DNA of 64,000 nt, taken from UHGV virus genome UHGV-0236300, one strand, 5' to 3'. The translations under genes and the position numbers were made by a program. Below the pieces are notes generated by a model. That model was given only the letters and a program-made list of their open reading frames with translations, searched no databases and was not told the origin of the DNA. Numbering within the stretch: the stretch's first letter is position 1; the number at the start of each line of letters is the position of its first letter. Below are positions 3,833-34,650 of the stretch, in pieces. The DNA is from a virus.

Positions 3833-5176
3833 ATGAGTAAAACCAAATTAGAACTTACCTGGATAGGTAAGAACGAGCGCAAAAAGCTAGAGCCTCACAT
3901 TTTGTTAGAAGATTCGAGCAAGTCTTATTACGCCAGTAAAAAGGTGACCGAAAACGATATTTTTGATAATAAACTGATTTTTGGAGATAACTTACTGGCA
4001 TTGAAGGCACTAGAGCAAGAGTATGCAGGCAAAGTGAAGTGTGTTTACATAGACCCGCCATTCAATACCGGAAGGGATTTTGAGCACTACGATGATAGCC
4101 TGGAGCACTCCATTTGGCTGGGCTTAATGCGGGACAGATTAGAAATAATTCGTAATCTGCTAAGCGATGATGGAGTGATATTCGTTCACTTAGATGACTG
4201 CGAAATGGCTTATTTAAAAGTCTTGATGGACGAGATTTTTGGTCGTGCAAATCAGTTAAATACCATATCGATGACTACAAATTGCCCTTCAGGCTTTAAG
4301 GCAACAGGAACTACAGTTTTCTCCACAGCAAACTTTTTGCTTGTATATGCAAAAGATCGTACCAAGAAACCACTTAACAAAATCTATATACCTAAAGAGT
4401 ATGATACGGGATATAACAAATATCTATTAAACCCAGATGACCATTATAAAAGTTGGACGTGGTGCGGTATTGCCGATGCGTTTGCAAAGGCCAATGGCTA
4501 TAAAGATACAAAAGAAGCCAAGAAAAAACTGCCTGATACATTTGATGATGAATTAGCACAATTTGCAATTGATAATGCAGAACGTGTATTTCAATCCGTT
4601 GCAATTGGCGGTGGTGCCAAAATAAAGAGAAAAGAAACTATCGAGAAGTCAAAGAAAGATAGGGATAAGGTTTATGTACATCCAAATGAGGATGTCGAAG
4701 GCTTTTATATCGCAAATGGTAGGCAAATGGTCTTTTATTCCAATAGGCTTTTGGAAATTGACGGCAAGATGCAGCCTGCTGAACTAATAACTGATGTTTG
4801 GACTGACATTAGTTGGAATGGAATAGCAAATGAAGGCGGCGTTAGTTTCAAAAATGGAAAAAAGCCCGAAGCGCTTTTGAAGCGAATTTTCGAAATGTGT
4901 ACGCGAGAAGGAGATTTAGTCTTGGATTCATTCGGCGGTTCAGGAACTACTGCTGCCGTAGCTCACAAGATGAAAAGACGTTGGATCTCTGTCGAGTTAG
5001 GTGATCATTGTCATACCCATATCATCCCGCGCTTGCAAAAAGTGATCGATGGCAAAGATCAAAGTGGTATTTCTAAATCTGTAAACTGGCAAGGTGGCGG
5101 GGGCTTTCGCTATTACAAACTTGCCCCGAACTTAGTTATGAAAGATAAGCTTGACTCAGAAGAAGATTTAGAGTAA
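3833..5176 (+). CDS. DNA methyltransferase, beta-class amino-MTase (N6-adenine or N4-cytosine)
   Basis: Motif IV IDPPFNT precedes motif I VLDSFGGSGTT (beta-class order); SD AAGGAGA 10 nt upstream. Confidence 0.8.
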   Translation: MSKTKLELTWIGKNERKKLEPHILLEDSSKSYYASKKVTENDIFDNKLIFGDNLLALKALEQEYAGKVKCVYIDPPFNTGRDFEHYDDSLEHSIWLGLMRDRLEIIRNLLSDDGVIFVHLDDCEMAYLKVLMDEIFGRANQLNTISMTTNCPSGFKATGTTVFSTANFLLVYAKDRTKKPLNKIYIPKEYDTGYNKYLLNPDDHYKSWTWCGIADAFAKANGYKDTKEAKKKLPDTFDDELAQFAIDNAERVFQSVAIGGGAKIKRKETIEKSKKDRDKVYVHPNEDVEGFYIANGRQMVFYSNRLLEIDGKMQPAELITDVWTDISWNGIANEGGVSFKNGKKPEALLKRIFEMCTREGDLVLDSFGGSGTTAAVAHKMKRRWISVELGDHCHTHIIPRLQKVIDGKDQSGISKSVNWQGGGGFRYYKLAPNLVMKDKLDSEEDLE

Positions 5177-5235
5177 TATTTAAAATATCTAAGGGTAGGT
5201 CTACTCTTCACACAAGATAAGGAGAACACCAAACG

Positions 5236-5478
5236 ATGAAGCGTTATAAACCATACACTTTTGAAATCGATTTCGAACTTGACGATATGCTCACTGTAGA
5301 AGCTCAGGCAGTTGTCCAGTTGCCAGATCCGGAGTGCCGTGATTCTGATGTTGATTATTATGGATTTAGACAGATTACTGATGTGCATGTTTACCACACA
5401 ACGGAGAAGAGGTGGATTTTCACCAGTTACCAAACGATCTGCGCCACTCGATTTACAAACGTGCAGCACGTGAACTAG
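5236..5478 (+). CDS. hypothetical protein
   Basis: ORF with 5' leader nearly identical to that of the MTase at 3833 (TAAGGAGARCACCAAACGATG). Confidence 0.45.
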   Translation: MKRYKPYTFEIDFELDDMLTVEAQAVVQLPDPECRDSDVDYYGFRQITDVHVYHTTEKRWIFTSYQTICATRFTNVQHVN

Positions 5479-9375: not shown

Positions 9376-11799
9376 ATGAGCATGTGGTCGTTCGATTTTG
9401 AGGCCTCTGGCTTGCTGGAAGACCCAGATCTTTATTATCACTGCGGTTTGTTTAAAGAGCTGAATAAGAACCGTTTTATGCTGTTCCTTCCCCTAAATGA
9501 CCGCACACACTACTCTGAAGAGGATGTGGAGAAAGCTAAGAACTTCATTCTGGCAAAGAAGACCCTTTATACAGATTTTGAGGCTCGCATAGCAGATTTT
9601 TCAGAGTTGGAAGGCTGGCTTACAGGCAATTCAGACTGGTCACCTACGGCTTTGAACTGTCATAACTGCTACAGTTACGACTTTATGCTGATGGAAAGAT
9701 TATCCGGTATTCATTTTGATATGTTCCGTGATCCTAAATGCATGGGAACTATCAACGACCACCAGGTTAATCTGTTTGATACGTTAGCGATGAGTCGAAT
9801 CTTGTGGCCTGACCGCCCTTTGCCAAAAGGTTGTCCAGACGCAGTATTCAATCCAGTTACCAAGAAAATGCAGCCTGTTGGACCTCATGGTCTTATGGCA
9901 TGGGGCTATGCCCTTGGTAACCAGAAAGTTCAAATCGATGACTGGCGGGAGCTTCCGCTGTGGAAGTATGTGGATCGTGTGTTCGAGGACGTTATCATTC
10001 AGGAGTTGCTCTGGAAGGAGTTGGTAGCGGAATCAAAAGGTGTATTCTACGGCAAATCTGACATGCAGAACTTTATGTACGATCCTGCCAAAGAGAAGCC
10101 GAAAGGCTTCAAGAAGATCACCTGGAAGAACGCATTACGCCGAGGCATGTTACAGCACTTCCTGATGGAGCTGCAGGCTCGACAGGGGGTGTATTTCGAC
10201 ATAGATGGGGCTATTGCTTTACGTGATCGTTGCGATGCGTGGATGAAAGAGATCGCTGATCGTGTTGAACCACAGCTTCCTTTAAAAGAGTTATCAATGT
10301 CTCAGCGGCCTAAGTTCCCTGAAAAGCCGTTTAACCAGGATGGGACAATCTCCAATAATGGTTGGAAATGGTTAAAAGACAAGCTTGGCTATCCTGTGGA
10401 CATGAGTGCTTTAGAATTTAAAGCCCCTCCTAAGCGAGCATTTACCTCCACAGGGGATGTAAGTAAGATGGGGATAAAATGGTGTGAAGAGATGGGCTGT
10501 AAAGACCCCGATAAGATGGCTGATTTCTTGAGGGGGTATATCAAAGGAACTTCTACACCACACCCTTTACCTAAAGAGCTGATGGATCAGGCGATAAGTG
10601 ACCTACAGCAGAAGCGAATGCCTGACTGCAAGATACCCATGAAAATCAGCAATCAGGACGACATCAAGCGATACCTGATCAGTGCTGGTTGGCTCCCAAC
10701 AATGTGGAGAACTAAGGATGTAACTAAGGATAGCAAGAAGAAAGCTTTACCTGATGCAGATGTTGATGCACGAGTATATGCATATATGGACGAGCTTTTG
10801 GAGTCAGAGTATTGTGACCTAATTATCAACTTCTGGAACAAAACTGATGCTAAGTTCCAGACAACTGTACATAAGTTCAGAAGCTTCCCTAACTCTGAAA
10901 GAATTAAAAAGGAAGTGTTCGGGAAAATACGTAGAAAAGCCAGAGCGCTTATTACTTCTCCGCAACTGAAAGATACGTTTGGGCACCTGTGCCCGAATCT
11001 TGAAAAATTGAACGGAGAGATGGCTAAAGATATCGTTTTGTGGTTATCATTGCGAAACCGTAGATCGGTCCTTGATCCAATCAAGGAAGATAAGGTTGAT
11101 ACTGGTCTTCTTAATCATCCACGTTTGAAGATTGACCACAAACTTCCTGCTAAAAGTTCTGGATTAACAAACACTTCCAGACAGAAACATAGTATTTGTG
11201 CAAACATGCCTAAACCATCTCCTAAAGTGGTTATGGGTAAAGAGATGCGTAGTCTGTGGGGTGTTCCTCCGGGATACTTTGAGATCGGTATTGACGGGTC
11301 CAACTTAGAGCAGCTCATCGGGGCCTGGGGTGCCTTTGAGTTTGACAACGGTCTGTATTATGATGTTGTAAGTAACGGGGACGCGCACCAAAACAATGCT
11401 GAGGCATATACAAAAGTAGCAGGTAGAGAGGTGTCCCGTAACGATGGTAAACCTATCACGTATGGGGTTATGTATGGGGCACAAAAAGATAAAGTTGCAG
11501 ATATGCTGGATATCTCTCCCGAACTGGGGCAGAGAGTAATCGATGCTCTCTGGGATGCCAACCCAGGTCTTAAGGGGCGCAAAGAGGATCTGGAGAAATT
11601 CTGGGAAGCAACAGGTAAGAAATTTATCTACTCTTTTGACGGGCATGCTATTTGGACACGCTCTAAACACTCTTTGCTTAATGCATATCAGCAAAATGGC
11701 GGTGCATCACTGTGTGACCTAGTTGGGATACTCATGCACCACCAGATGGTGAAGCGTGGATGGTATGATGAGGGTGTTCGTCGTATTATTTATTACCAT
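9376..11799 (+). CDS. DNA polymerase, family A (T7 gp5-like), exon 1
   Basis: N-terminal exo motif FDFEASGL and AWGYALG; motif A IDGSNLE, motif B KPITYGVMYG; ORF stops right after ...IIYYH-K, the H being the His of motif C (HDE). Confidence 0.8.
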
Positions 11800-20447: not shown

Positions 20448-20637
20448 GCTTAAATCTGCATGGAACATTGCTGTGGGTGATGAGATCCGCATCCCTGGTG
20501 GGAAGACCGTTATGAAGATATCTCGTATTGAATACGAAGGCGACCGTGTATTCCACATCTTTGCAGAAGATGGTCGGGAAATTTATGTACAAGCGGGCTC
20601 TCACATCTATATCCGTAAGAAAGGGGATGACAAATGA
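20434..20637 (+). CDS. hypothetical protein
   Basis: ORF overlapping its neighbours (coupled). Confidence 0.5.
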   Translation: MQMFKLKSAWNIAVGDEIRIPGGKTVMKISRIEYEGDRVFHIFAEDGREIYVQAGSHIYIRKKGDDK

Positions 20638-20963
20638 CAGAGATCATTATTTCAACTGCAGGGTATGTATTCCTGACAATCATTGCTCTGACCATTTTGG
20701 TGGCGGTATATGGATTTGTTATTCTACCTATTCTTGAGACAATTAGTTTGTGTCGGTGTTGGAGAAAGGCTTACGGTCCACAGCCGTGGAGGGACTGGCC
20801 CCACCTGGTTCGCATAGCGTTCTCTTATGCTTATGATCACGCCAGCAGTGCATGCATAACCGGGTATCACGCTCACAATTGGAACTGGGAGGGGTTGGGT
20901 AGATGGAATGTTATAAAGACCATACCTCTACGTATGCACAAGCCTAAAAACAAAGACAGTTGA
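20634..20963 (+). CDS. putative membrane protein
   Basis: N-terminal hydrophobic segment GYVFLTIIALTILVAVYGFVILPIL. Confidence 0.5.
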   Translation: MTEIIISTAGYVFLTIIALTILVAVYGFVILPILETISLCRCWRKAYGPQPWRDWPHLVRIAFSYAYDHASSACITGYHAHNWNWEGLGRWNVIKTIPLRMHKPKNKDS

Positions 20964-21274
20964 TACTTGAAAATCCCTGGCACATCAAGTATAAGGAGGA
21001 TTTCTAAAATGGACTTCCTCCTTTTGATATTTTACCTGGCCGGATATTTTAAAATTCTTAGAAAATCAGAAAATGGATCGAAAACTAAAATGGATTTTTC
21101 AAGACAGGCGCGATAAGATGTGCTGCTCATTCTATCGTTCGCACCGTACTTTAAGTTACTATTCCAGATTTTCCGCACATACTCTCACCCTTCTACCAGA
21201 ACTTTCCCAGCTTACCTTTGACCCTTTATAACAATAAACCCATTATTCTCAGTAGGTTTTGATACATCTCTCTC

Positions 21275-21440
21275 AGTACTCGATCTGTTTTTCGTTTCAA
21301 AGATTGAATTTTCTGAAAATTTTTCTCGATAAATTTCTTAGTACTCGATCTGTTTTTCGTTTTCTGAATCAGATTTTCTGGAAATCGTTCCGGAGCTCGA
21401 CCTGAAATTTTTGGGGACGAAATCGATTTTTCGTTTTCGG
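21275..21440. repeat. AT-rich tandem repeats (about 65-bp period; core TCGATCTGTTTTTCGTTT)
   Basis: AGTACTCGATCTGTTTTTCGTTT at ~21275 and ~21340, degenerate third copy ~21420; iteron-like. Confidence 0.6.
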
Positions 21441-21554
21441 AAATGGATTTTTAAAATTTGTATATGGAAATACTTAAGGAGGTATTATTTTATATAGAAT
21501 TGTCACGGTAGGTAATTAGCATGCTAACTAAATTTATGAAATGCGAAAAGTTCT

Positions 21555-21780
21555 CATTTAGAATTTTGAATGATAATCATTCTCGTTTGCAGAATAACGG
21601 GCACCCCCGGTGATTGTCTCCCGGCCCCTGTTGCCCCGGCTTGTTATTATAGTATCACACAGGACAAAGAAAGCAAGGATTTTTTGCATAAATTTTTAAA
21701 TGATAATGATAACCGTTCTCATTTTATGCAGCGCCCATCCCCGGTGGTTGTCTCCCCCGTCACCGGTGCCTGCCGTCCTT
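21555..21780. repeat. pair of GC-rich ~90-bp direct repeats in an AT-rich, ORF-poor region
   Basis: AATGATAAT...CCCCGGTGATTGTCTCCCGGCCCC versus AATGATAATGATAA...CCCCGGTGGTTGTCTCCCCCGTCACCGG; ACCTGGCGGGGCC also recurs at ~21800 and ~21862. Confidence 0.55.
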
Positions 21781-21941
21781 TCGATAGGTATATTGTGCCA
21801 CCTGGCGGGGCCGCTGTCAACACTTTTCAAAAAAATTCTAACCTGATGCGCTAACCGTTGCAACCTGGCGGGGCCAGCCTGGCAGGGCTATGCTATAGGG
21901 TAGGCAACAACTGAAGAGGAGGTACAAAAATAAAAGGTAAT

Positions 21942-22103
21942 ATGATCCCTGGAAATGTAGCGATTAATGACGCTGAGGCTATCGCCCTGGTTGAAAAGGC
22001 TATGGCGGGAGCGTTGGAACATAAAGAAGAGTACGAAAAAATGATGGTTAACCTGGCAGGGGCGGCGGCTGGAGAATTCTGCCCAAAAAATAATTCTAAC
22101 TAA
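21942..22103 (+). CDS. small hypothetical protein (53 aa)
   Basis: ORF below the track cut-off (MIPGNVAINDAEAIALVEKAMAG...); weak SD. Confidence 0.3.
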   Translation: MIPGNVAINDAEAIALVEKAMAGALEHKEEYEKMMVNLAGAAAGEFCPKNNSN

Positions 22104-22106
22104 TGG

Positions 22107-22134
22107 TTGACAGCTCGGATAGTTCTGTTATTCT
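22107..22134 (+). promoter_or_regulatory. candidate sigma70 promoter (TTGACA-N16-TATTCT)
   Basis: Consensus -35 with moderate -10, upstream of gene 22187. Confidence 0.4.
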
Positions 22135-22186
22135 TATCCTCGCAAGGTGAACAACACCACACTAATTAACAGAGAGGATAAAAATC

Positions 22187-22384
22187 ATGAACGCCTACGG
22201 AATTAAAGTACGTCGCAACACTCGCCAGGCCGTCACCGATCAAATGATTTGCCAGGTGGACGTAACCATCAACAACGGGCAAGGCCTTTATAAATTCCGT
22301 CGCGGTCAGAGCTACACCCGGCAACAGCTTAATCGTTGCGCCCTGACAAAAGGCCAGATCAACCACTGGTTTAATAAAAAATAA
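22187..22384 (+). CDS. hypothetical small basic protein
   Basis: ORF with SD GAGAGGA upstream. Confidence 0.55.
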   Translation: MNAYGIKVRRNTRQAVTDQMICQVDVTINNGQGLYKFRRGQSYTRQQLNRCALTKGQINHWFNKK

Positions 22385-22387
22385 GTA

Positions 22388-22416
22388 TTGACATACAGTC
22401 TGACACCAAATACACT
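22388..22416 (+). promoter_or_regulatory. candidate sigma70 promoter (TTGACA-N17-TACACT)
   Basis: Consensus -35, upstream of gene 22449. Confidence 0.45.
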
Positions 22417-22448
22417 AAAAGCACAAAAGACACTAAGAGGATAAAATC

Positions 22449-22847
22449 ATGAAAACCACTACCTTTAATTTTGATAATGCGGACTTTTCTTTTTCTGATG
22501 TCAAGAACTGCCGCCGTGATCGTGGATTTTACAAGGCCTATAATCTGGTGGGCCTGGACGATGACAATAATTTGCACGAAGTAGCTGAGATCCGGTATTA
22601 TGCCGCCGCCAGCGGGAACACTCAATACTGCGTTTTTTGGATTCACGACAACAAGAACAATAAGTACGGTTATACTGGCGGGAAGGCGAGCGGTCACGGT
22701 TACGATAAAGCTAATGCAGCACTTGAGAGCGCATTAAATGCTATGGGGATCACTGCCAACGGCTGGATCTATGAAGAAGAGTTTTTGTCGGCACTTGCTA
22801 ACCACCTGGGCTATAAAAAGCACATTGTAACATGCGCCCACGAATAA
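22449..22847 (+). CDS. hypothetical protein
   Basis: ORF with SD AAGAGGA upstream. Confidence 0.6.
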   Translation: MKTTTFNFDNADFSFSDVKNCRRDRGFYKAYNLVGLDDDNNLHEVAEIRYYAAASGNTQYCVFWIHDNKNNKYGYTGGKASGHGYDKANAALESALNAMGITANGWIYEEEFLSALANHLGYKKHIVTCAHE

Positions 22848-26601: not shown

Positions 26602-27021
26602 ATGAACATTAAATCTGATAATCCGGCATATAGCTTTGATAACGCTTTTTGTCACGGTCCGGCGGCGAAAGGATTCGAAATCGATGGTAAACTAATTATT
26701 GTCAATGTTGACGGGGAAGAGGTTGCAGTATATCCGGTGGCAGACGTTAAAAGCCGTCTACAATGCCGCATAGATGTTACCGCCTATCAGCTTGATCCGG
26801 TCCGGGTAGTTGCCCTGGTCCTGGAAGAAGAAATTAAAGCAATGCACCACAGCAACAAGTTTATTGGTGACGCTCAAGATAATATGCAGGTATGCCGCTA
26901 TAAAGTTAATGAAGTGCTTAAAGAGTACGGCTATAAGGATTTAATGATCAAGCGCGATGAAAAATTCCGCTACCGTAACGACCTGGCAAATCGGATTTTT
27001 GAAATATACGAATCATTATAA
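26602..27021 (+). CDS. hypothetical protein
   Basis: ORF with SD AAGAGGTAAAAA upstream; followed by a terminator. Confidence 0.6.
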   Translation: MNIKSDNPAYSFDNAFCHGPAAKGFEIDGKLIIVNVDGEEVAVYPVADVKSRLQCRIDVTAYQLDPVRVVALVLEEEIKAMHHSNKFIGDAQDNMQVCRYKVNEVLKEYGYKDLMIKRDEKFRYRNDLANRIFEIYESL

Positions 27022-27526: not shown

Positions 27527-28322
27527 TTCGAAATTGTCACGATAAGTTATTATACACAGAGAAATCTTTAGTCGTCTAATGTTTACTGTACATTACTATA
27601 CTGACTGGAATCATTAGATGACTAAGAGAAAGATAAGAAATAATTAATAATGTAATTGTTTTACCTGTAACAATAAGGCAACTATGCAAACGAATGGCAT
27701 GGCGCGACGGAGTCGCGACATAATATAAAAGCAGTAACAATCACCCCCGTGATAGTTTTTCTGCAATCTATTATTCAGATCATAGTTGCCTTGTATTTAG
27801 TTAATCATGACATAACAAGCAAGGCAACTATAGATCTTCTAATAGTTGCCCTGCTTTTATATTATGTCATAGATTGTTATCTTGTTAATTGTTTTCATGC
27901 AAACGAATGTCATGGCTTATCATCTCTGTGTAAACAATTTGGGCGTAAACTATTCAGATGAAAACTATTCAGGCGTAAACAGTCTATGCGTAAACAGTGA
28001 GATATGGAATAGTAACAGCCGTTATTGTGTCATATTGTGTCATTGTGTCAAAGGTAAAAGTGTCAAAAGTGACAATTTTGTCACATTGTGTCAGACAAGT
28101 TTTTCTCCTCTTTGTCAAGTGCCGCATGAAAAATTTACAAACTGGTATGGTAGCATTTTTGCGGCCCTGTTTACATTCAGGAATGTATGTATAATCCTTG
28201 CTGTGTGGGCGTTTAGACGTCTGGACGGTCAGAAGTCAGCAGGTCAATATCTAATCTATTGGTTGCTAACTATATCCCACACAAATAGTAAGAAATATAA
28301 TTGTTATGTGCGTAAACAGTAA
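27527..28322. repeat. iteron-like repeats (core GCGTAAACAGT) in a noncoding region
   Basis: (T/G)CGTAAACAGT at ~27527, ~27974, ~27988, ~28310; GCGTAAACT at ~27944; AAGGCAACTAT and its reverse complement recur at ~27673, ~27783, ~27821, ~27843. Confidence 0.55.
28025..28120. repeat. array of TTGTGTCA-type short repeats
   Basis: TTGTGTCAT x2, TTGTGTCAA, GTGTCAAAAGTGACA, TTGTCACA, TTGTGTCAG, TTGTCAAG within ~95 bp. Confidence 0.55.
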
Positions 28323-28622
28323 CTCATGTTATCAATCCCTGTATGTATCGCCAGTGGTGCGCATAATGGGTATTATGTTAAATTGCCCGTAATGATAACC
28401 ATTCTCACAATGATAGGTATTCTCATTCATCCCCACAAGATAGATTGCAAATGTTGTGCCACTGTGTGAACGGCCTCACCTATTAATTTGCCTCACTGCC
28501 TCGATATTTGAGAATTATTATAAAAAATGAGAAGTATTCCCATTCCGTCCGCCTGGCAGCACTCCTGTAGGACAAGCACAACATCGGGGTATAACTGGAC
28601 CTGTTCAGATATTTCTGGCTGA

Positions 28623-29162
28623 CTCTTCAGGCCTGTGTGGGAAAAGCCAACCTCTCCGGCGGCGGGGAGGGGGGTCAATTAAAAAATTTACGTGGTGTAT
28701 GAAGCGCTCTTCAGGCAAGGTGTGTATTATGGGATGAAACCCTCTTCAGGTGATGATATTTGTGGGGGGATATTTGCTGGAAAGCCAGATATGACGGGGC
28801 TCCCGGCGGGGATGGGGTAGTACAGACAGGGAAAATGTGGGGATGTGGTGGGAGTAAATTGATCAAGTAGGTAGGATATGGAATATGTTACAAGTATGTT
28901 AAATATAGAGGTAGGATATTTGTGAGATTTGTGTGTAAAATCAAAGACTTAGGTGGTGTTGTGGTATTTTCTATAAATAATTCAAGTTTAATAGGTGATA
29001 TTTGTCTCCATCCACTTTGTGTGGTAAACAGCTCCTAATTGAATTGGTTTACAAGTGTATATAAAGTATACAAATTAAAGATATAAGAAACCCCCCTCCC
29101 CCTTCGGCTACCATTCACCTTTTCCTCTGACTGGTACTTAAACACTTATTCAGACTCTTCAG
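28623..29162. repeat. dispersed 9-mer CTCTTCAGG (4 copies here, 5th at ~29814)
   Basis: Exact 9-mer at ~28623, ~28707, ~28742, ~29154 and ~29814; about 0.5 copies expected by chance in 64 kb. Confidence 0.55.
28664..29101. repeat. 12-bp G-rich inverted repeat pair (GGGGAGGGGGGT / ACCCCCCTCCCC) flanking a GT-skewed segment
   Basis: Perfect reverse complements at ~28664-28675 and ~29090-29101; the intervening plus strand is almost devoid of C and holds G-runs. Confidence 0.5.
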
Positions 29163-29526
29163 GTTATCACCCCTATACTATATGGCAGTGACTGGTGTCC
29201 TCCGGCCCCTCTTTCGCCACCCGTCCGCTTCGCCATGCTAATGCCATAGCCAAAGGTTCGGTTGTTCACCCTGTTCACTCAGGTGTATCTCCATACCCCT
29301 TCAAACCGAAGAGAACAGAAAACCCGAATTACTCGGTAAAAGAAAAGAGAAGAACTTAATTTTATCAAGATAGGCAAGAATGTCAAGGGATGACTGCTCA
29401 CTAAACAAGCAAACAGTCATGTGTGGTAGGTAAGTAACTGGGTTGGTAGGAAATTTAGTTGGAAGATGTTATAGGTGCCTCCAGAACCTTAGCTGGGCAG
29501 CTAAACCTGCAAAGCAGACTTGTGTG

Positions 29527-29808
29527 TCAGTCCAAAGGTTCATCTACTACTTCACTGAAATCAATGTTCAGGGTCTCTTCCCAACCATCAATCTCAGCAC
29601 CAGAGTAGAGATCTTTAGGGTCTACATCAAGGGCTTCCGCAACAGCATCTATATTTAACACTTCTGGCAGGTAAGATTCATCGAATTCAAGGTAAATCAG
29701 GCCACGAGTGTTGTCAGTCCCACCAAATATTTCTATTTTCATGAAATCTCCTCTGGAAATGAGAGTGTGAACAGGGTTTATACGTTCCAATACGCTGGAA
29801 TTATGCAC
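29527..29808 (-). CDS. hypothetical acidic protein
   Basis: ORF with GTG start; very acidic composition. Confidence 0.5.
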   Translation of the reverse strand: MHNSSVLERINPVHTLISRGDFMKIEIFGGTDNTRGLIYLEFDESYLPEVLNIDAVAEALDVDPKDLYSGAEIDGWEETLNIDFSEVVDEPLD

Positions 29809-29862
29809 GTTTGCCTCTTCAGGCCATGCTTTAGCATGATAAACTTATGTGGGCTCGGTGCT

Positions 29863-30048
29863 TCATAGTCTCCCACCTCTGAACTCTTCGTGCTCGGGCA
29901 TAATAGAGAACCAGATGGCTATGATATCTTCCCACGTTAGGTCATCAGCCTCAGGATCCACCTGGGACGGAGATAGAGAATCCTCAGAATTGAAGTTTTC
30001 CTCTATCACTCCTTCAGATGTCTCTGTAGATGCATGTGTGTTGGTCAT
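29863..30048 (-). CDS. hypothetical acidic protein
   Basis: Short acidic ORF. Confidence 0.4.
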   Translation of the reverse strand: MTNTHASTETSEGVIEENFNSEDSLSPSQVDPEADDLTWEDIIAIWFSIMPEHEEFRGGRL

Positions 30049-30546
30049 GTTCCACCCGTGAGTATTCCGGCAACATGTTTAAAAAATAAGACTTTATCAA
30101 CATATGGCCGGAACGTGTCGATGCCATAAGCATATTCCTGCAACAGCCGCTATGGACGTAATGATCATCAGGATCACCACTAAAACCTCTGACAATGTTT
30201 TCATTGTGTATTCCATATTATCCAAACAATGTGTGGATACTATCACAGGGGCGGTAATGTGTCAACAGAAGCGCCGCGAGGGTTTGGTTAAAATCCGAGC
30301 GTATGGTGATTTGGGTCAAAACGGGCGTGCGTTCTCGCTACGCTCGAAATAGAGAGTTGTTTGTAGGATGACTTTAAACGCTCTGTAAGGAGATTAATTG
30401 TCTAAGGTATGGAATCGTGCACCAGATAAAGAAAAGGACGCCACAGAGCGTCCTAGGTGCCTTAAATTTGATATTTTGCTATACCCATGAGGGCTTGTCT
30501 AGGTTGGAGTAACTGAAGGGGGTCAAAAGGTGACTGTCAAAATCTT

Positions 30547-30789
30547 TCAAACTGTCCAAGTCTTTTCCTCGTCCTGACACCATCTGTGCCTGCATTTATT
30601 GTTGTAGTGCATGGAATGCATAGCGTTCTGCAACTTAATAGGTACAAGTGATTCAGGAGTAGATAGAATTGTTGGGTATGCCAGGACTATCTCGAACAAT
30701 GGAAACACATCGAAACTGAAGTCTATTTCTGCTGAGGTTGCTGGCATATAGGAGTATTTAGCTGTCGTTGTAGACATAATCCACCTCAC
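30547..30789 (-). CDS. hypothetical protein
   Basis: ORF coupled to the upstream gene. Confidence 0.45.
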   Translation of the reverse strand: MRWIMSTTTAKYSYMPATSAEIDFSFDVFPLFEIVLAYPTILSTPESLVPIKLQNAMHSMHYNNKCRHRWCQDEEKTWTV

Positions 30790-31112
30790 ACAGGCTTGAT
30801 AATACCTTCACCGAATAACTCTTCATATTTAATCTTATCAGGATCCCACTCCTGGATAATTTCGAAGACAATATCCAGCCCAGGGATAATCACTTCTCCG
30901 GTATCAAGTCTGGCAAGAACAAAACCGGAAGGTTGAATGGTTTCCCAGTTGCGACGATTAGAATAGAGAACTTCGAAAATATCGCCAACCGCAATCTGCT
31001 GATCAAGGTGCTCAAGATTCTCTTTCATATAAACGCAGCGTATTTTCCGTGCAGGCCACAGGCCCCCTGCATCACGTTCATTTAGCTCTTTTACAGTAAT
31101 CGGCATTAGCAT
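30786..31112 (-). CDS. hypothetical protein
   Basis: ORF with SD GGAGA upstream. Confidence 0.5.
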   Translation of the reverse strand: MLMPITVKELNERDAGGLWPARKIRCVYMKENLEHLDQQIAVGDIFEVLYSNRRNWETIQPSGFVLARLDTGEVIIPGLDIVFEIIQEWDPDKIKYEELFGEGIIKPV

Positions 31113-31132
31113 TTCTGATCTTCTCCATAGAT

Positions 31133-31158
31133 AGTAAAAAGAGGGGCCAAGACCCCTC
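31133..31158 (-). terminator. rho-independent terminator (minus strand)
   Basis: On the minus strand GAGGGG-TCTTGG-CCCCTC hairpin followed by TTTTTACTAT. Confidence 0.6.
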
Positions 31159-31165
31159 CTCGTTG

Positions 31166-31471
31166 TTATTCTGCAGAGCGTTTGAACAGAATGTCTGCTT
31201 CAGACATGTGCTCAACCTCTTCTTCGATTTTAGCTCGACGTTTTTCAGCTTCGTAGCGGATATCGAATTCGGTAGCCACCAATGACTTGATAAACTTAGG
31301 AGAATACAGGTGATCCTGTTTCTCGACAAGAATAATATCCTTGATAGCGTCTTTCAGATCTTTAATCTGAAGCTGAAGTTCCACCAGCTCTTCAATTGTT
31401 TTACGGAGGCGATCACGCTCTGCAGTGTCAGAAGGCAGAGAGGTGAACAGTTCAACTTTAGATTTAGCCAT
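31166..31471 (-). CDS. hypothetical protein (predicted helical)
   Basis: ORF; Lys/Glu-rich repeats suggest coiled-coil. Confidence 0.55.
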   Translation of the reverse strand: MAKSKVELFTSLPSDTAERDRLRKTIEELVELQLQIKDLKDAIKDIILVEKQDHLYSPKFIKSLVATEFDIRYEAEKRRAKIEEEVEHMSEADILFKRSAE

Positions 31472-31499
31472 AGTAAGAGTCTCCTTATATTGTTTTAAA

Positions 31500-31751
31500 T
31501 TAACGTTCTACAAAAATACCGTTCAGTTCAATAACCAGGAATTTCTGGTCTTCACTATCGTCACGTGCCAGCACCTCACAGACGTAACGGTCATCTCCGT
31601 CATCATCACAGTCAAACACAAGGCTGAGGACTTTATCATGATAAACCTTCGCCACTACCGCCTCGTAAGTGTTGCCGATTGTGAATCCAAGATAATCCCC
31701 GATGCATTTGACAACAACATGGTCGCCAGCATTTAAGTCAATCTTCGTCAT
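31500..31751 (-). CDS. hypothetical protein
   Basis: Track ORF 31500..31817; ATG 31751 (MTKIDL) after SD AAGGAG is the likelier start. Confidence 0.5.
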   Translation of the reverse strand: MTKIDLNAGDHVVVKCIGDYLGFTIGNTYEAVVAKVYHDKVLSLVFDCDDDGDDRYVCEVLARDDSEDQKFLVIELNGIFVER

Positions 31752-31878
31752 TACTGTGCTCCTTGGGTGATAATACGGTATGTAAAACTCTAACCAGAGA
31801 TGTGAATAACGCCCCAAAACACACCGATAGCGCTAAAACAGATAAGGCCATCATTAAAGCTTCAGTAAAATCAGTCAT
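31738..31878 (-). CDS. small putative membrane protein (46 aa)
   Basis: ORF below the track cut-off; SD GAGGTGAGGA; hydrophobic MMALSVLALSVCFGALF; stop overlaps the next start. Confidence 0.3.
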   Translation of the reverse strand: MTDFTEALMMALSVLALSVCFGALFTSLVRVLHTVLSPKEHSNDED

Positions 31879-31906
31879 TCCTCACCTCTTGTTAGTCACT
31901 ATACTA

Positions 31907-32221
31907 TTATTTATCTTTGCCGTCAAGAACTTTTTTAAATCTCTCAGGAATATCTCCTGTTCTTAGATAGTTCATGACCTCACAAGGTTCCCACTTAAAC
32001 TTCTTGCACAGCAGAGCGGCTGAGATTGTCTCATTGCGAAAAGAAAGGATATCAATATCCCACTCTGAGAACCCTAATTTCCGAAGAGTGGCTATAGAAA
32101 TCCTCACAGCAACCCAACAAGAGAGGCACGCAACAAACGCCACTGCCACAACCCACACCAAGATGTTCATACAGCCCCTTAATGAAATACAAGACATAGT
32201 GCCAAGGTCACTATTCAGCAA
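31907..32221 (-). CDS. putative membrane protein
   Basis: Hydrophobic segment ILVWVVAVAFVACLSCWVAV. Confidence 0.45.
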   Translation of the reverse strand: MLNSDLGTMSCISLRGCMNILVWVVAVAFVACLSCWVAVRISIATLRKLGFSEWDIDILSFRNETISAALLCKKFKWEPCEVMNYLRTGDIPERFKKVLDGKDK

Positions 32222-32258
32222 ATAATTAACAGTGCCGTTGCAACCTTGGCAAGATTTA

Positions 32259-32546
32259 TCATAGCGTCTCTAAAATTTCATACCCTTCGGGTCGGAAAAC
32301 AAGCCACTCAGGTGCTCCATTTGGTCGATACGCTTTATACAGAACAACCTGATCTCGGCACATACACATTGCTACATAGTTTTCATCCACACCTGCAGCC
32401 TGCATTGCATCTTCTTCTCCGGCAACCGCTTTGCTTACAACTTCCTTGGTAGGCAGGTGGGCGATCAGCTCGTCACCATCGTTAATTCCAAAATGGCTGA
32501 GTTCTCCATTGGTGTCTTTAATCTTGATCTTAACCAAATCTTTCAT
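32259..32546 (-). CDS. hypothetical protein
   Basis: ORF coupled to the upstream gene. Confidence 0.5.
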   Translation of the reverse strand: MKDLVKIKIKDTNGELSHFGINDGDELIAHLPTKEVVSKAVAGEEDAMQAAGVDENYVAMCMCRDQVVLYKAYRPNGAPEWLVFRPEGYEILETL

Positions 32547-32875
32547 TAGTCTTCCCCCAAGTTCAAAGGTCCTAAGATTTCATATGCCAGATTAGAAGTT
32601 ACCAGGGGATCTTCTGCATCTTTAGTATTATACCACCCGTGAATAACCAGAGTCCCACTTTTCTTCATGTCTAACTGGAACTGTTCTGCCGTTTCCTCAT
32701 CCACCTCCAAGATCTCCATGAGGTATTTGATGTTAGGAAGGTATGCAGCTGTTACAGTCCCCTCTACCCGGCCTTCAGGCCAACCTACATCCGGATGACA
32801 AGTAGGGACCAGAGAGGTCAGCTTGATAGTGTATGCTTTTTCTGCACGAGCCTTCAGTAACGGATCAATCTTCAT
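32546..32875 (-). CDS. hypothetical protein
   Basis: ORF coupled to the upstream gene. Confidence 0.5.
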   Translation of the reverse strand: MKIDPLLKARAEKAYTIKLTSLVPTCHPDVGWPEGRVEGTVTAAYLPNIKYLMEILEVDEETAEQFQLDMKKSGTLVIHGWYNTKDAEDPLVTSNLAYEILGPLNLGED

Positions 32876-33225
32876 TATTCTTCCTCCTCTTCGGTGCCTG
32901 CTTCCAGTAGTAAGTTAAGAACATCTTCAGCAGAAGGTTCGTAGAACTCTTGGCCTTCGTTGTCGATGATGCGATAGTCATCACCACGAATAATCAGAGG
33001 ATCGTCATCAAAACCTTCAAGACCTTTAACAACGACAACACGGTCGATTGCCATCATTGTAAGAACTTTATCGACATCTTCCTCTGCTACACCATACTGC
33101 AGCAGAATGTCTTTGGTAGGAGGGACAGCATCCACCACAACACCGTTACTAAAACCTTCCGGAAGTTTAGCTAAAATATCTTCCGGAACCACATTCATAT
33201 CAAAACCTGTGATCTCTACTTTCAT
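32875..33225 (-). CDS. hypothetical acidic protein (paralog family B)
   Basis: Similarity by eye to 33226..33486 and 34651..34920; poly-Glu C-terminus. Confidence 0.55.
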   Translation of the reverse strand: MKVEITGFDMNVVPEDILAKLPEGFSNGVVVDAVPPTKDILLQYGVAEEDVDKVLTMMAIDRVVVVKGLEGFDDDPLIIRGDDYRIIDNEGQEFYEPSAEDVLNLLLEAGTEEEEE

Positions 33226-33486
33226 TTACAGCACCTCTTCGTCAACTACTTCATAAAAATGGCTAGGGATTGCAATAGCGTTCTCACCTTCACCTACAAA
33301 CACAGTCCCGTCAAGGATCAACATCATAAGAATGTCTGTAATATCCTCCTCCGGAACGTTGCCAAAACCTTTAATCAACTTATATGTCGGGACATTCGCC
33401 TCTAGGATGTCGCCATCTTTAGAACGGAAATCCACACCTTCCTGAATCTCTGCCATTTCAAGGTTTTTCAATCTAATCTTCATCAA
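33226..33486 (-). CDS. hypothetical acidic protein (paralog family B)
   Basis: Shares an MKI/MKV start and an YEVV(D/E)EE-type C-terminus with 34651..34920. Confidence 0.55.
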   Translation of the reverse strand: MMKIRLKNLEMAEIQEGVDFRSKDGDILEANVPTYKLIKGFGNVPEEDITDILMMLILDGTVFVGEGENAIAIPSHFYEVVDEEVL

Positions 33487-33515
33487 TCAGTCTCCTGTCT
33501 TGTTAAGATGAAGGT

Positions 33516-33544
33516 ATTATTGCACACAGGGTTGGTGTTGTCAA
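33516..33544 (-). promoter_or_regulatory. candidate sigma70 promoter (minus strand) overlapped by a 15-bp palindrome
   Basis: Minus-strand TTGACA at 33544-33539 with an AATAAT/TAATAC -10 candidate; perfect palindrome GGTGTTG-T-CAACACC (33534-33548) covers the -35. Confidence 0.35.
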
Positions 33545-33562
33545 CACCTGTGTGGCATAAAA

Positions 33563-33958
33563 TTACTGAAACAGTGCAGATAAATTACCTTCTGGTGGGA
33601 ACTTATCTGCCAGGAATGGGGTTAGAACAGTGGCCTTCTGAAGATCTGGGGTCCACTCGTTGTTCAGAACATCCCAGTAATACGCAATGTTGCTATGTGG
33701 GTGCCGCATTACGAACTTTTTCCCTTCGTAGTCAGTTGAAACCTCTACAGAAGAAATAACAACAGAATCTTCAAGGGTTTCTTCATAGAAAGATCCACCC
33801 TCAAATTTCCAACGAGATGCAAGAGCTCCTGCCTTGAACGCTGCAGATAACGGACTGTCTGCAAGAACATACATTTCTTGCACTCTGTCACTGCGATCTT
33901 TGCTTCTTACGTTGTATACAGTATCCGAGCTATACTCAACACGGTATAGACTTACCAT
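33563..33958 (-). CDS. hypothetical protein (paralog family C)
   Basis: Paralogous to 35766..36164 (HP(D/H)S...YW...WTP motif). Confidence 0.55.
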   Translation of the reverse strand: MVSLYRVEYSSDTVYNVRSKDRSDRVQEMYVLADSPLSAAFKAGALASRWKFEGGSFYEETLEDSVVISSVEVSTDYEGKKFVMRHPHSNIAYYWDVLNNEWTPDLQKATVLTPFLADKFPPEGNLSALFQ

Positions 33959-34317
33959 TACCGAGCCTCCTCAATAACTTCCACATCTGAACCCACCACA
34001 AATGCAAAAGGGCAGGTTTCATGAAAGATATCCGGATCTCCACCAAGCTTGCTAACTATCTCTCCACCACTAATAAACACAAGCTCACCAATATTCATCA
34101 GATTGCTAAAATAGTAGCCATAATGATTGAAGAATGCAGCTGGGTCAGGTAGACTGGTGGCCTCAAGCTCTACATTGCTTGAGATCACTTTCTTATCATA
34201 CCCTCTCGCCTTTTGAGATGCAAGATCTGCAGAGTCTTCAGGAGACCGGAGATGCACAGGAATTGTTTCACCAATAAAGCGTACTTTCATATTCTTACCC
34301 CACAACCATAGCTTCAA
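33958..34317 (-). CDS. hypothetical protein (possible family A relative)
   Basis: C-terminal FVVGSDVEVIEE resembles family A tails; start may be an internal ATG. Confidence 0.5.
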   Translation of the reverse strand: MKLWLWGKNMKVRFIGETIPVHLRSPEDSADLASQKARGYDKKVISSNVELEATSLPDPAAFFNHYGYYFSNLMNIGELVFISGGEIVSKLGGDPDIFHETCPFAFVVGSDVEVIEEAR

Positions 34318-34558
34318 AAGGTGTCATAAACGAATAAACAGCATCATCATCTGCTTCAGGGAATGCCCCCAAAGACTTTATGTCTGATCCCTTGACAAAT
34401 ACAAGGTTTTGATCAAAAGCTTCTTGTGGATCAATCCGATACATATCTCGTAGGATACCACTTACCTCCTCATCAAGAGGCGAGTATGCTGTGCACGTTT
34501 TTCCAATCAAGCTTTGAGAATCAGGGTATCCACCTGAAGTTTTAAAATAAACAATCAT
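34295..34558 (-). CDS. hypothetical protein (paralog family A)
   Basis: LVFVKGSDIKSLGAFPE resembles VFILGSDLIAAGAPE of 36177..36431. Confidence 0.5.
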   Translation of the reverse strand: MIVYFKTSGGYPDSQSLIGKTCTAYSPLDEEVSGILRDMYRIDPQEAFDQNLVFVKGSDIKSLGAFPEADDDAVYSFMTPFEAMVVG

Positions 34559-34650
34559 ATAGTATCACCTCTGGTAAGAGATGGGGATTCCTTTCCCACA
34601 AATAATTACAAACCTTTCTTGTCGAGGAAAGTATGCTAACCCAAGTAGGA

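Follow-up and report, generated by a model that had tools for sequence, protein, structure and literature searches.

Fur-box-like palindromes and predicted opposing promoters in a conserved non-coding region of rV5-like E. coli phages

Introduction

Fur boxes are a textbook element of the host, and they are known on prophages, where they stand before cargo genes; the box of stx1 is one that lies on a temperate phage. In temperate lambdoid phages a Fur box lies upstream of sitABCD, and a function carried by the phage thus becomes part of the iron regulon of its host (PMC6969025). The boxes of temperate phages are single and precede a prophage cargo gene, whereas those of the region described here form arrays, and the conserved non-coding module to which they belong is found in virulent phages and has no cargo gene. 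We have found no report in the literature of virulent phages whose non-coding control regions carry Fur-box arrays that are conserved and phased.

The phage region has several features in common with the E. coli fhuA, fecI, fepA/fes and entC promoters, namely a 19-bp palindrome of 9-1-9 form, registers displaced by 6 bp, and perhaps also a box lying in the spacer between the -35 and -10 elements of a promoter-like site. Exact runs extend over 16 nt with the fhuA box and 19 nt with the fecI box, and there is no DNA homology to any promoter of the host outside the box. Unlike the E. coli Fur promoters, the phage has whole boxes set 29 bp apart in front of predicted opposing promoters, with no iron-uptake gene under their control, and it is virulent.

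The injection stop signal (iss) of T5, in Repeat Region 3 of the left terminal repeat, is like our region a long untranslated region conserved above its neighbouring genes. Both have phased arrays of Fur-box palindromes, next to direct repeats with A5T5-type tracts, and the motif of box, xAGAAT, GGGCAC and CCGG is also present in a T5-like contig. Only T5 has paired DnaA boxes in inverted repeats, a fixed position in the terminal repeat and a nick site; our region is without DnaA boxes. In T5 that fixed position is near the end of the first-step-transfer DNA, which is not so for our phage, whose relatives are circularly permuted. Because the genomes of Vequintavirinae are circularly permuted (PMC7344957; PMC3606486), a position-dependent injection stop is inapplicable here. 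The GenBank records start at arbitrary places relative to the module.

Face-to-face promoters are known in coliphage 186, where the starts of pR and pL lie a few tens of bp apart and a repressor acting at one of them decides the direction. Unlike pR and pL, the promoters predicted here would have a host protein as repressor, would include several tandem leftward promoters, and would involve no lysogeny decision. At the T7 primary origin and at T4 oriF and oriG, promoters stand before an AT-rich melting region and there is no dedicated initiator protein. The order of promoters and AT-rich DNA is similar in our region; unlike it, these origins have no Fur boxes.

Results

A gap without genes in an rV5-like phage

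The DNA analysed (the window) is a 64-kb stretch of the genome of an rV5-like E. coli phage (Vequintavirus), the closest relative of which is B9-1, with 99.8% identity. An ORF ending at 20963 and a small ORF beginning at 21942 bound a gap that the original prediction described as poor in ORFs, with one long ORF that looked spurious. The gap is real, and B9-1 likewise has no annotated gene across the homologous interval. The left part of the gap, the long ORF and the gene on its right are:

21100..21265, plus strand: C-rich, G-poor stretch, the fastest-evolving part of the gap
21266..21330: AT-rich unit 1, containing ACTCGATCTGTTTTTCGTTT, an imperfect dyad TCGATCT / AGATTGA and the tract GAAAATTTTTC
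21331..21404: AT-rich unit 2, 78% identical to unit 1 over 55 nt
21405..21470: AT-rich unit 3, degenerate (72% identity), with the dyad ACGAAATCGATTTTTCGT
21471..21515: spacer of lowest GC content (~25-27%), its composition kept and its sequence variable (mean identity 84.8%)
21570..21854, plus strand: ORF of 94 aa, annotated in many relatives and judged non-coding here
21942..22103, plus strand: small gene of 53 aa (phrog_21957) with a strong ribosome-binding site

The 94-aa ORF does exist. Its substitutions fall 11, 9 and 7 times on codon positions 3, 1 and 2, showing no third-position bias, and the eight genomes compared give it five different C-termini. It has no Pfam hit, the matching PHROG has no known function, and the frame is not kept in other genera. 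On the codon positions, the C-termini and the Pfam result we reject its coding potential, in agreement with the earlier view. The first coding sequence on the path of a rightward transcript from the putative Pfur promoters listed below is the small gene at 21942-22103, for which relatives have an ATG some 17 nt upstream where the window has ATA.

Three AT-rich repeat units had been noted, and they are found at 21266-21312, 21331-21377 and 21405-21451, with spacings of 65 and 74 bp. The first two have an exact 24-nt core AGTACTCGATCTGTTTTTCGTTT in common. The array is not reported by Tandem Repeats Finder. Unit 1 is kept in the eight Vequintavirus genomes, and other genera have analogous units. 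In the adjacent C-rich stretch (21100-21265), where the GC skew drops as low as -0.68, the eight genomes have a mean pairwise identity of 83.5% and differ in 73 of 168 columns; this is possibly a Rho-utilisation region terminating the upstream operon.

Further to the right lies a core, 21516-21830, that is conserved above the flanking genes. It is 96.5-97.6% identical among the eight Vequintavirus genomes, and 7% of its columns are variable compared with 17-18% in the adjoining coding sequence. The repeats, motifs and other features that we describe for the gap are all kept in these eight genomes, and other genera carry the same kinds of feature; for both reasons we take them to be more than chance. 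Across the genera of Vequintavirinae and Phapecoctavirus the box region is 70-89% identical and the flanking genes are not common to them. Neighbouring genes shared between these genera were sought as a clue to function, and there were none.

Palindromes that match the host Fur box

Binding sites for a regulator were among the roles originally proposed for the repeats. Such sites are supported, but they lie at other places. The key feature, which had been overlooked, is an AT-rich 19-bp palindrome just upstream of each GC-rich repeat that by its sequence is a host Fur box (21540, 21569 and 21705). Scores below are those of a matrix built from phage boxes.

21516..21527: perfect 12-bp palindrome TTAGCATGCTAA, invariant in the alignment of eight genomes
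21540..21558: Fur box 1, AATGCGAAAAGTTCTCATT, 21.5 bits, 29 bp from box 2
21569..21587: Fur box 2, AATGATAATCATTCTCGTT, 28.1 bits, 15 of 19 consensus matches
21699..21723: Fur box 3, in two registers 6 bp apart, at 21699 (13.0 bits) and 21705 (AATGATAACCGTTCTCATT, 26.7 bits)
28391..28544: second Fur-box cluster, with boxes at 28391 (17.2 bits), 28409 (20.8 bits) and 28526 (20.5 bits)

Compared with the 19-bp consensus GATAATGATAATCATTATC, which can be read as 9-1-9 or 7-1-7, there are 15, 16 and 15 matches of 19 at 21566, 21702 (box 3) and 28388, and four sites with at least 15 matches are observed where 0.5 are expected in shuffled sequence. Box 2, which is 70-89% identical across genera, holds the exact central 13-mer of the consensus, AATGATAATCATT, and a run of 16 nt, ATAATCATTCTCGTTT, exactly in common with the E. 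coli fhuA promoter. The element TGATAATCATTCTCA, read from the sequence, agrees with the 7-1-7 motif at 14 of 15 positions. The sites form register pairs displaced by 6 bp (21566/21572; 21696/21702/21708; 21699/21705), and register shifts of 6 bp are described for Fur clusters in E. coli (PMC2189734).

The matrix, for which 12 lineages supplied 31 phage boxes, was run over three 50-kb pieces of E. coli K-12 (150 kb). This phage-only matrix gave nine hits of at least 10 bits, and eight of the nine lie in known Fur promoters; fepA/fes, fepD/entS, fepB/entC, fecI, fecA and fhuA were recovered. The boxes at 28391, 28409 and 28526 were left out of its construction. The cluster that they form sits in another ORF-poor stretch, and in it GTAATGATAACCATTCTCA is exactly common to the E. 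coli fecI promoter.

Related phages have boxes in arrays of one to four; of 20 pairs of adjacent boxes, 15 have a spacing of exactly 29 bp. A reading of 29 bp as 6+17+6, with one promoter core for each box, was dropped since good hexamers are missing in most arrays. The module recurs in either orientation, both in related genomes and within the window, and it is found in T5-like phages too. In T5 itself (AY587007) there are boxes at 9473-9491, 9508-9526, 9577-9595 and 9612-9630, scoring 25.7, 14.5, 32.2 and 28.1 bits; the T5 annotation has direct repeat C and palindromes E, G and I there. Judged by sequence, palindromes E, G and I of the iss are the same boxes as those of the window, the T5 palindromes scoring 25.7-32.2 bits compared with 21.5-28.1 bits for the window boxes. 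The T5 literature that we searched makes no mention of Fur.

From these matches we infer that Fur binds the phage boxes. A tblastn search revealed no Fur homologue encoded by Vequintavirinae, so that a phage-encoded Fur was rejected and Fur of the host is the candidate ligand.

Predicted promoters facing one another

Promoter-like sites flank or enclose the boxes, with the following coordinates. Figures out of 12 give the agreement with the two hexamers.

21536..21564, plus strand: Pfur1, promoter-like (scan, 9/12), ATGAAA, 17 nt, TAGAAT, with box 1 filling the spacer
21566..21595, plus strand: Pfur2, promoter-like (by eye, 8/12), TTGAAT, 18 nt, CAGAAT, with box 2 filling the spacer
21527..21499, minus strand: P0, possible weak promoter (by eye), -35 TTAGCA at 21527-21522, 17-nt spacer, -10 GACAAT at 21504-21499
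21649..21676, minus strand: P1a, sigma-70-like (by eye, 8/12), -35 TTGCTT at 21676-21671, 16-nt spacer, -10 TACTAT at 21654-21649
21792..21820, minus strand: P1b (scan, 10/12), TTGACA, 17 nt, CACAAT, with TG upstream of the -10
21835..21863, minus strand: P1c, promoter-like (scan, 9/12), TTGCAA, 17 nt, TAGAAT

The scan finds nine sites in the window where 4.8 are expected, including 21820..21792, 21863..21835 and 21536..21564; in one relative it finds four compared with 1.1 expected, and in another five compared with 1.5. In eight lineages 60-68 nt separate the first box from the best match to sigma-70, with hexamers and spacing kept and the spacers unrelated. For P1b the distance from the end of the -10 to box 3 is 68 nt, compared with 60-64 nt in seven other lineages. 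P1a, with a predicted start at ~21642, is in a position homologous to the conserved P1 of other genera. The alignment shows the P1c -10 to be damaged in rV5, HMD-6 and L014, and relatives have a stronger equivalent of P0 at the same position.

Rightwards, Pfur2 is predicted to start at ~21602-21603, at the sequence GGCA. The last box is preceded by TTG in 9 of 13 lineages, and behind it comes xAGAAT...GGCA; the T5-like contig has the same arrangement. The A at position 2 of the putative rightward -10 is absent from several lineages (CTGAAT, CGGAAT, TGGAAT). The rightward sites score only 8-9/12 and box 3 is without a convincing rightward promoter, both of which count against the switch proposed below.

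The recurring motif of the original prediction, ACCTGGCGGGGCC, is confirmed at 21800-21812, in the spacer of P1b, and at 21863-21875 (94% over 17 nt), where the second copy starts at the P1c -35 and runs upstream. There are shorter CCTGGCRGGG copies at 21878 and 22052, and these motifs occur nowhere else in the 64-kb window. The source phage has no leftward gene for P1a-c to express, and a small leftward ORF of PVP-SE1 and GAP31 is without a counterpart in the window. The boxes lie at about +55 to +100 from the predicted leftward starts, which is not the classical position for repression. A sigma-54 or ECF-type promoter reading of GGCA-N5-GGTG...GTCTC was rejected, since the spacings misfit when compared by eye with the consensus sequences.

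The GC-rich repeats

Two GC-rich repeats of ~90 bp, each with an internal CCGGTG...CACCGG, had been described. The repeats exist, with copies 134-136 bp apart, but the similarity is shorter than ~90 bp and comprises a 33-nt block (21556-21588 and 21692-21724, 73% identity) and a 21-nt block (21602-21622 and 21736-21756, 90% identity). The inverted repeat is present in the second copy (21741-21746 and 21761-21766) but not in the first.

21598..21641: GC-rich repeat 1, defined by the repeat families and cross-genus alignment, with the conserved GGCA-N5-GGTGATTGTCTCC
21727..21790: GC-rich repeat 2, with CCGGTG...CACCGG, the leader of the predicted P1b transcript

Both sit between the boxes and the conserved leftward sigma-70 promoters, and repeat 1 is the ~40-bp overlap of the predicted rightward start at ~21603 and leftward start at ~21642. 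The conservation of nearly every base in 21516-21830, together with GGCA-N5-GGTGwTTGTCTC, exceeds the needs of a promoter pair, and there must be some further reader of this DNA or its RNA to account for it.

A possible Fur-gated switch

We tentatively favour a reading in which the region is a conserved non-coding control module, where host Fur as the iron-loaded repressor may gate opposing promoters beside the bent AT-rich dyad repeats. It builds on boxes that match the Fur box and are conserved and phased, on conserved leftward promoters, and on a region that is non-coding. Activity of the promoters, and a switch working in the following manner, is what we would predict from these sequences. 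Three Fur boxes would take part, those at 21540 and 21569 phased at 29 bp and the third at 21705, with boxes 1 and 2 occupying the spacers of the putative rightward sites 21536-21564 and 21566-21595. With sufficient iron, Fur-Fe2+ would occlude the rightward promoters. Transcription from P1a, P1b and P1c, which face them, would cross first the GC-rich repeats and the boxes and head for the AT-rich dyad repeats, which are bent. If iron is low and Fur inactive, or if Fur is titrated by many replicated phage genomes, the rightward promoters would open. Their transcripts would run across the GC-rich repeats in the direction of the small gene (21942), and would both collide and pair with the leftward transcripts. 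The GC-rich repeats would then be overlap zones of 40-65 bp between face-to-face promoters, and neither genes nor iterons.

Other readings of the boxes and repeats

The boxes could instead be a decoy, in which copying of the genome soaks up host Fur and turns on the iron-starvation regulon of the host (iron uptake, RyhB, NrdEF) to the benefit of the phage. There are at least six strong boxes in 64 kb of this one genome, related genomes have up to four to seven in a cluster, T5-like phages have arrays of up to five strong boxes, and the scores match or surpass those of the best E. coli sites. In the Fur titration assay one Fur box, carried by a multicopy plasmid, is enough to derepress the genes that Fur controls, and by the same token titration of Fur would be expected from phage genomes present in hundreds of copies. 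This leaves unaccounted for, however, the fixed 60-68-nt distance to the conserved promoters, the promoter-like TTG and xAGAAT flanks of the last box, and the near-invariant GC-rich sequences, and, the lytic cycle being short, Fur would be titrated only at a late stage, when host transcription may be shut down already. We consider a decoy decidedly unlikely as the explanation. Alternatively the palindromes might be operators of a phage-encoded dimeric DNA-binding protein with Fur-like specificity, making an autonomous switch between early gene blocks. The boxes favour G at -4 (TGAGAAT, 44 of 62 half-sites), a position given as T in the classical consensus, and the function of most neighbouring small ORFs is unassigned; moreover whole boxes are phased at 29 bp, compared with the 3- and 6-bp overlaps of E. 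coli Fur clusters (PMC2189734). Yet almost all that the phage-derived matrix picks up in E. coli are Fur sites, and the strongest host sites, fecI and fhuA, hold ATTCTC half-sites. The same boxes occur in unrelated phage families with no obvious common candidate regulator, and the flanking genes are not conserved along with the module. We consider such an operator very improbable.

The AT-rich DNA, earlier named as a candidate replication origin, could belong to a transcription-activated origin, with transcription from P1a-c crossing a G-rich leader before it enters the spacer of low GC content and the bent dyad repeats, RNA or an R-loop opening the DNA or priming synthesis, and Fur acting as a host accessory or checkpoint factor; we think this unlikely. 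The local GC minimum (25-27% at 21400-21550) is directly downstream of the leftward promoters, the three dyad-containing units with their A/T tracts are kept in kind across genera, the cis module is conserved where its flanking genes are not, and the leftward promoters have no gene to express. The skew analysis by the rV5 authors located no origin, and homologues of the rV5 primase/helicase include those of Podoviridae (PMC3606486). On the other side, DnaA boxes (at most one mismatch) are lacking from 20900-22200 and also from six related gaps, apart from one site with one mismatch in two of these gaps. No initiator or DNA-binding domain is recognisable in the neighbouring ORFs (no Pfam hit), three units spaced at 65 and 74 bp, one of them degenerate, are unlike classical 17-22-bp iterons, and the module of promoter, leader and box recurs at a second locus that has no AT-rich units. 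Furthermore the homologous Fur arrays of T5 are in the terminal repeat, and its origins are reported near the genome centre (Davison, bioRxiv 10.1101/866236). A G-quadruplex or R-loop signature in the leftward leader was rejected, for the pattern of G-runs seen in the window is not conserved across genera. The GC-rich repeats might also encode small RNAs with a regulatory role, one of them rightward and repressed by Fur and/or others short and leftward, base-pairing for example through the C/U-rich UUGUCUCC. In relatives a rightward transcription unit is plausible. The distance between the GGCA behind the last box and a hairpin of terminator-like form is 196-205 nt (13 distinct sequences), the hairpin is followed by a U-rich tail and has G-U pairs workable on the plus strand only, and the helices of the unit are 95.6% paired as plus-strand RNA compared with 74.2% as minus-strand RNA. 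The relatives' RNAs have a conserved GAUCCACCUUCC, which is similar to the anti-Shine-Dalgarno end of 16S rRNA, UUGUCUC is kept in most lineages, and in the window a helix of CCGGUGAU (21608-21615) with GUCACCGG (21760-21767) can be drawn by eye, analogous to the long-range helix of the relatives. However, the relatives' terminator module is absent from the window and neither unit there is closed by a terminator; a scan of 20500-22600 gave one weak terminator-like site only, at 21407-21444 in AT-rich unit 3, and hence no closed short unit. No stable fold was found in the window. Folding z-scores are +0.7 and +1.6 for repeat 1, and -0.6 and +0.56 for further segments including the whole unit, where repeat 1 and the whole unit (+0.7, +1.6, -0.6) fold no better than shuffled sequence. 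For repeat 2 they are -1.5 on the plus strand and -2.3 on the minus strand, this leader alone reaching the lower end of the range of +1.6 to -2.3. There is no Rfam match in the window at gathering or permissive thresholds, which disposes of a known RNA family, and covariation is almost nil, the relatives' rightward RNA having one compensatory pair with shuffle controls not significant. The suggestion of small structured RNAs finds no support in the window, and we regard RNA genes here as most improbable.

Discussion

A Fur-gated control module may be of wider occurrence. Arrays are carried by Vequintavirinae, Phapecoctavirus, T5-like phages, a 347-kb jumbo-phage contig (L006) and others. It is possible, though we hold it doubtful, that phased host Fur-box arrays with opposing promoters are a widespread and unrecognised class of cis-element in virulent enterobacterial phages, with host Fur a required factor that times or gates the early programme, and that in T5 they play a part in halting or releasing the DNA at the injection stop signal. 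If Fur does bind the boxes, these virulent phages either sense the iron status of the infected cell or manipulate it, and such iron sensing, if true, bears on phage therapy in iron-limited tissue. In T5 the same boxes are at the calculated break point of first-step transfer, so that the stop signal, a puzzle of several decades, is now directly testable.

We have also considered other origins for the region. The EC152 record starts at the first AT-rich unit, which could mark a packaging site or genome end, but that record has no terminal repeat, and the circular permutation of the subfamily (PMC7344957) also rules this out. A captured host promoter was rejected because the best match across 5,426 E. 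coli genomes is a 26-nt chance match only. A tRNA remnant was suggested by the record of a Klebsiella phage, in which the homologous 76 nt are annotated as tRNA-Met; ARAGORN predicts no tRNA in that segment, nor any in the window. The tRNA-Met annotation of the Klebsiella phage looks misplaced, and our description accounts for a stretch that many GenBank records label as hypothetical proteins.

Repeats and Fur boxes in the gap

The phage is a Vequintavirus, since the region at 21060-21900 has 99.8% identity to Escherichia phage B9-1 and about 90% to phage rV5. This region belongs to a gap of ~1.2 kb that separates the homologue of rV5 ORF200 (ending at 20963) from the early-promoter cassettes beginning at 22107. 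No gene is annotated in the gap in B9-1, and short hypothetical ORFs are annotated in rV5 and others.

A repeat search of the window agrees overall with the repeats described in the original prediction. The three AT-rich units begin at 21266, 21331 and 21405 (spacing 65 and 74 bp); units 1 and 2 have an exact 24-nt core in common and unit 3 is degenerate. The array was not detected by Tandem Repeats Finder. Similarity between the two GC-rich copies extends over about 70 nt with an offset of 134-136 bp (repeat families D4 and D7), and CCGGTG...CACCGG is confined to the second copy. The recurring motif ACCTGGCGGGGCC is indeed present at 21800 and 21863, with a short form two further times, and neither form occurs elsewhere within the 64-kb window.

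Ahead of each GC-rich copy stands a 19-bp AT-rich palindrome that the original prediction did not notice. These palindromes agree with the Fur-box consensus at 15-16 of 19 positions, and the central 13-mer of the consensus is found exactly in the window. There are four matches at that level, compared with 0.5 expected from shuffled sequence, with a third locus at 28388.

Fur boxes and promoter-like sites of the region
21540: Fur box 1, AATGCGAAAAGTTCTCATT
21569: Fur box 2, AATGATAATCATTCTCGTT
21705, with an overlapping register at 21699: Fur box 3, AATGATAACCGTTCTCATT
21536..21564, plus strand: rightward promoter-like site (promoter scan), box 1 filling the spacer
Plus strand: second rightward promoter-like site, TTGAAT-18-CAGAAT, box 2 filling the spacer, then a GC-rich stretch and GGCA
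21676..21649, leftward: P1a, homologous putative promoter of GC-rich copy 1, TTGCTT-16-TACTAT, weaker, read by eye
21820..21792, leftward: P1b, TTGACA-17-CACAAT, 10/12 (promoter scan)
21863..21835, leftward: P1c (promoter scan)

A perfect 12-bp palindrome, TTAGCATGCTAA, lies at 21516-21527, 12 nt from Fur box 1, and is invariant in eight genomes.

The phage boxes select Fur promoters in E. coli

For a test independent of the consensus, 31 phage boxes from 12 lineages were made into a matrix for scanning three 50-kb pieces of E. coli K-12 (ent-fep, fec and fhu). All six matches of at least 8 bits in the ent-fep piece fall within the fepB/entC, fepD/entS and fepA/fes intergenic regions. The two matches in the fec piece are the fecI promoter (24.2 bits) and the fecA promoter, and the best match in the fhu piece is the fhuA promoter (19.4 bits). 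Taking the three pieces together, classical Fur sites make up eight of the nine matches of at least 10 bits. The sole strong match outside known Fur promoters is ATTGAGAATCATTCTGAAT (14.3 bits), in the map-rpsB intergenic region (position 49582 of the piece). The window has ATAATCATTCTCGTTT in common with the fhuA promoter and GTAATGATAACCATTCTCA in common with the fecI promoter. A DNA search found no homology to E. coli genomes beyond the box itself, and no Fur homologue is encoded in the Vequintavirinae genomes searched. We infer from the sequence match that Fur binds the phage boxes.

Predicted opposing promoters

The window scan gave nine sigma-70-like sites, compared with 4.8 expected. 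In eight lineages the distance from the first box to the best leftward match is 60-68 nt; hexamers and spacing are kept and the spacers are unrelated, a pattern typical of real promoters. PVP-SE1 and a Klebsiella phage each have three leftward sites by promoter scan. The first copy of ACCTGGCGGGGCC is the spacer of P1b; the second starts at the P1c -35 and runs upstream. TTG stands ahead of the last box in 9 of 13 lineages and is rare ahead of internal boxes. About 40 bp separate the predicted rightward start from the leftward one, and GC-rich copy 1 would therefore be the overlap of face-to-face promoters.

Conservation of the module

A sensitive DNA search in other genera recovers only the box region of the gap, at 70-89% identity, in Mydovirus, Seunavirus, Certrevirus, Henunavirus and Phapecoctavirus, phages of Klebsiella, Salmonella, Cronobacter, Pectobacterium, Erwinia and Proteus. 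All of those genomes contain an ORF-poor gap like this one, with the parts in identical order: two to four AT-rich units (dyad plus A/T tracts), one to four Fur boxes, TTTGCAGAATgACrGGCA-N5-GGTGwTTGTCTC, and leftward promoters. The module recurs in both orientations, and no flanking protein genes are common between genera. Of 20 pairs of adjacent boxes, 15 have a centre-to-centre distance of exactly 29 bp. Conservation among eight Vequintavirus genomes is highest in the core at 21516-21830 (96.5-97.6% identity, 7% variable columns); variable columns make up 17-18% of the adjacent coding sequence and 43% of 21100-21265.

In relatives TCTTTACAATTCTTTACA has two copies, one beside the module and the other elsewhere in the genome, ahead of a strong early promoter (L018 10160-10230; L003, a Klebsiella phage, 3141-3165). 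Unrelated viral contigs carry the same boxes (L006, a 347-kb contig among the group, L010, L029, L116 and L122; IMG/VR), some as 29-bp arrays of four to five boxes beside other direct repeats. L006 additionally carries the GAATAGCAGGCAGG motif and a nearby promoter.

Relation to the T5 injection stop signal

IMG/VR was searched with a pattern of two box halves 10 nt apart. Among the matches listed are many T5-like contigs with five to seven strong boxes spaced at 29 or 35 bp.

T5-like box arrays
9473-9630: T5 (AY587007.1)
4874-5423: L048
3596-3753: L107

The T5 boxes, of up to 32 bits, carry the annotations direct repeat C and palindromes E, G and I. They fall within the injection stop signal and adjoin DnaA boxes, the 7.9% nick and direct repeat D. 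In Davison's comparison of 25 T5-like phages these repeats are highly conserved, with a calculated break point at about 9618 (10.1101/866236). The T5 Fur boxes coincide with the calculated break point of first-step transfer. Fur is not mentioned in that comparison (10.1101/866236), and no link between Fur and T5 was found in the other literature searched. Vequintavirinae genomes are circularly permuted (PMC7344957, PMC3606486) and their element lacks the DnaA boxes of the T5 region. The window element is therefore like the injection stop signal in parts but is not a member in function.

Coding capacity and RNA

The 94-aa ORF running through the repeats was described in the original prediction as looking spurious, and rightly so. 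Substitutions on codon positions 3/1/2 number 11/9/7, most alter the amino acid, and because the length of an A-run varies there are five different C-termini in eight genomes. It has no Pfam match, and its PHROG match, to a family without known function, probably reflects only annotated copies in close relatives. The ORF is not a protein. The A-run at 21829-21835 ranges from 6 to 14 A across relatives.

The small structured RNAs also envisaged there were not borne out in the window. Neither copy 1 nor the whole 248-nt unit, on either strand, has a folding energy better than that of shuffled sequence; z = -2.3 is reached solely by the copy 2 leader on the minus strand. Rfam gave no match in the region. 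Relatives have a conserved rightward unit of ~200 nt that runs from the last Fur box and closes with a G-U-rich terminator-like hairpin (L032 2531-2740, L003 3061-3265 and 11 other loci). Inside is an invariant CGAUCCACCUUCC, which we take to resemble the anti-Shine-Dalgarno end of 16S rRNA. Both the unit and its terminator module are absent from the window. Thirteen distinct sequences have 196-205 nt between GGCA and the hairpin with its U-rich tail. In the two consensus helices pairing reaches 95.6% for the plus strand and 74.2% for the minus strand, a difference due to 61 G-U cells. Covariation amounts to one compensatory change, and shuffle controls were not significant. A rightward RNA under Fur control is plausible in relatives, and the unit is a candidate Fur-controlled small RNA. 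In L003 (OY978796.1) tRNA-Met and tRNA-Ile are annotated over the boxes and GC-rich element (3004-3157); this annotation appears shifted or wrong, because ARAGORN finds no tRNA there.

Possible functions

The reading we favour, tentatively and at not quite an even chance, is that Fur would gate a set of opposing promoters. This would use all the conserved parts except the near-invariant GC-rich core, and would fit classical Fur-repression architecture at boxes 1 and 2. Recurrence of the module in either orientation would thereby be accounted for. Its main rival, an origin activated by transcription, we consider unlikely. That the boxes serve as a Fur decoy is somewhat less probable still, and we give little credence either to a phage-encoded look-alike regulator or to small RNA genes. 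Several of these could hold at once.

Other features of the gap and beyond

Within 20964-21116 a strong ribosome-binding site stands between a hairpin, TTGATACTTGA...TCAAGTATAA, and a hydrophobic ORF of 35 aa that begins at 21009. The start codon of this ORF is missing in phage NHEP1, and a 1-nt indel near its end shifts the frame in most relatives. The plus strand of 21100-21265 is strongly C-rich and G-poor (skew down to -0.68), with the lowest conservation within the gap, and may be a Rho-dependent termination zone of the upstream operon. An indel of ~50 bp at 21886-21941 divides this phage, FV3, JEP1 and EPFV3 from rV5, NHEP1 and L014, with HMD-6 of intermediate length. At 21925-21944 the usual start codon of a small gene, ATG in relatives, reads ATA here, so in this phage the gene must begin at the ATG at 21942, which is missing from FV3, EPFV3, NHEP1 and JEP1.

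A large region with few ORFs lies at about 28300-34600, where neither tRNA nor Rfam family was found. By coordinate conversion, its right-hand part, about 32-34.6 kb, corresponds to the rV5 'no observable ORFs' region (104013-106618). GC skew changes sign at about 28-30 kb, at the peak of the cumulative curve. The ORF-poor stretch at 28330-28700 carries a second Fur-box cluster at 28391, 28409 and 28526 (17-21 bits); a further site, at 27005, is weaker (13.6 bits). The box at 28391 is identical over 19 nt to the E. coli fecI promoter box.
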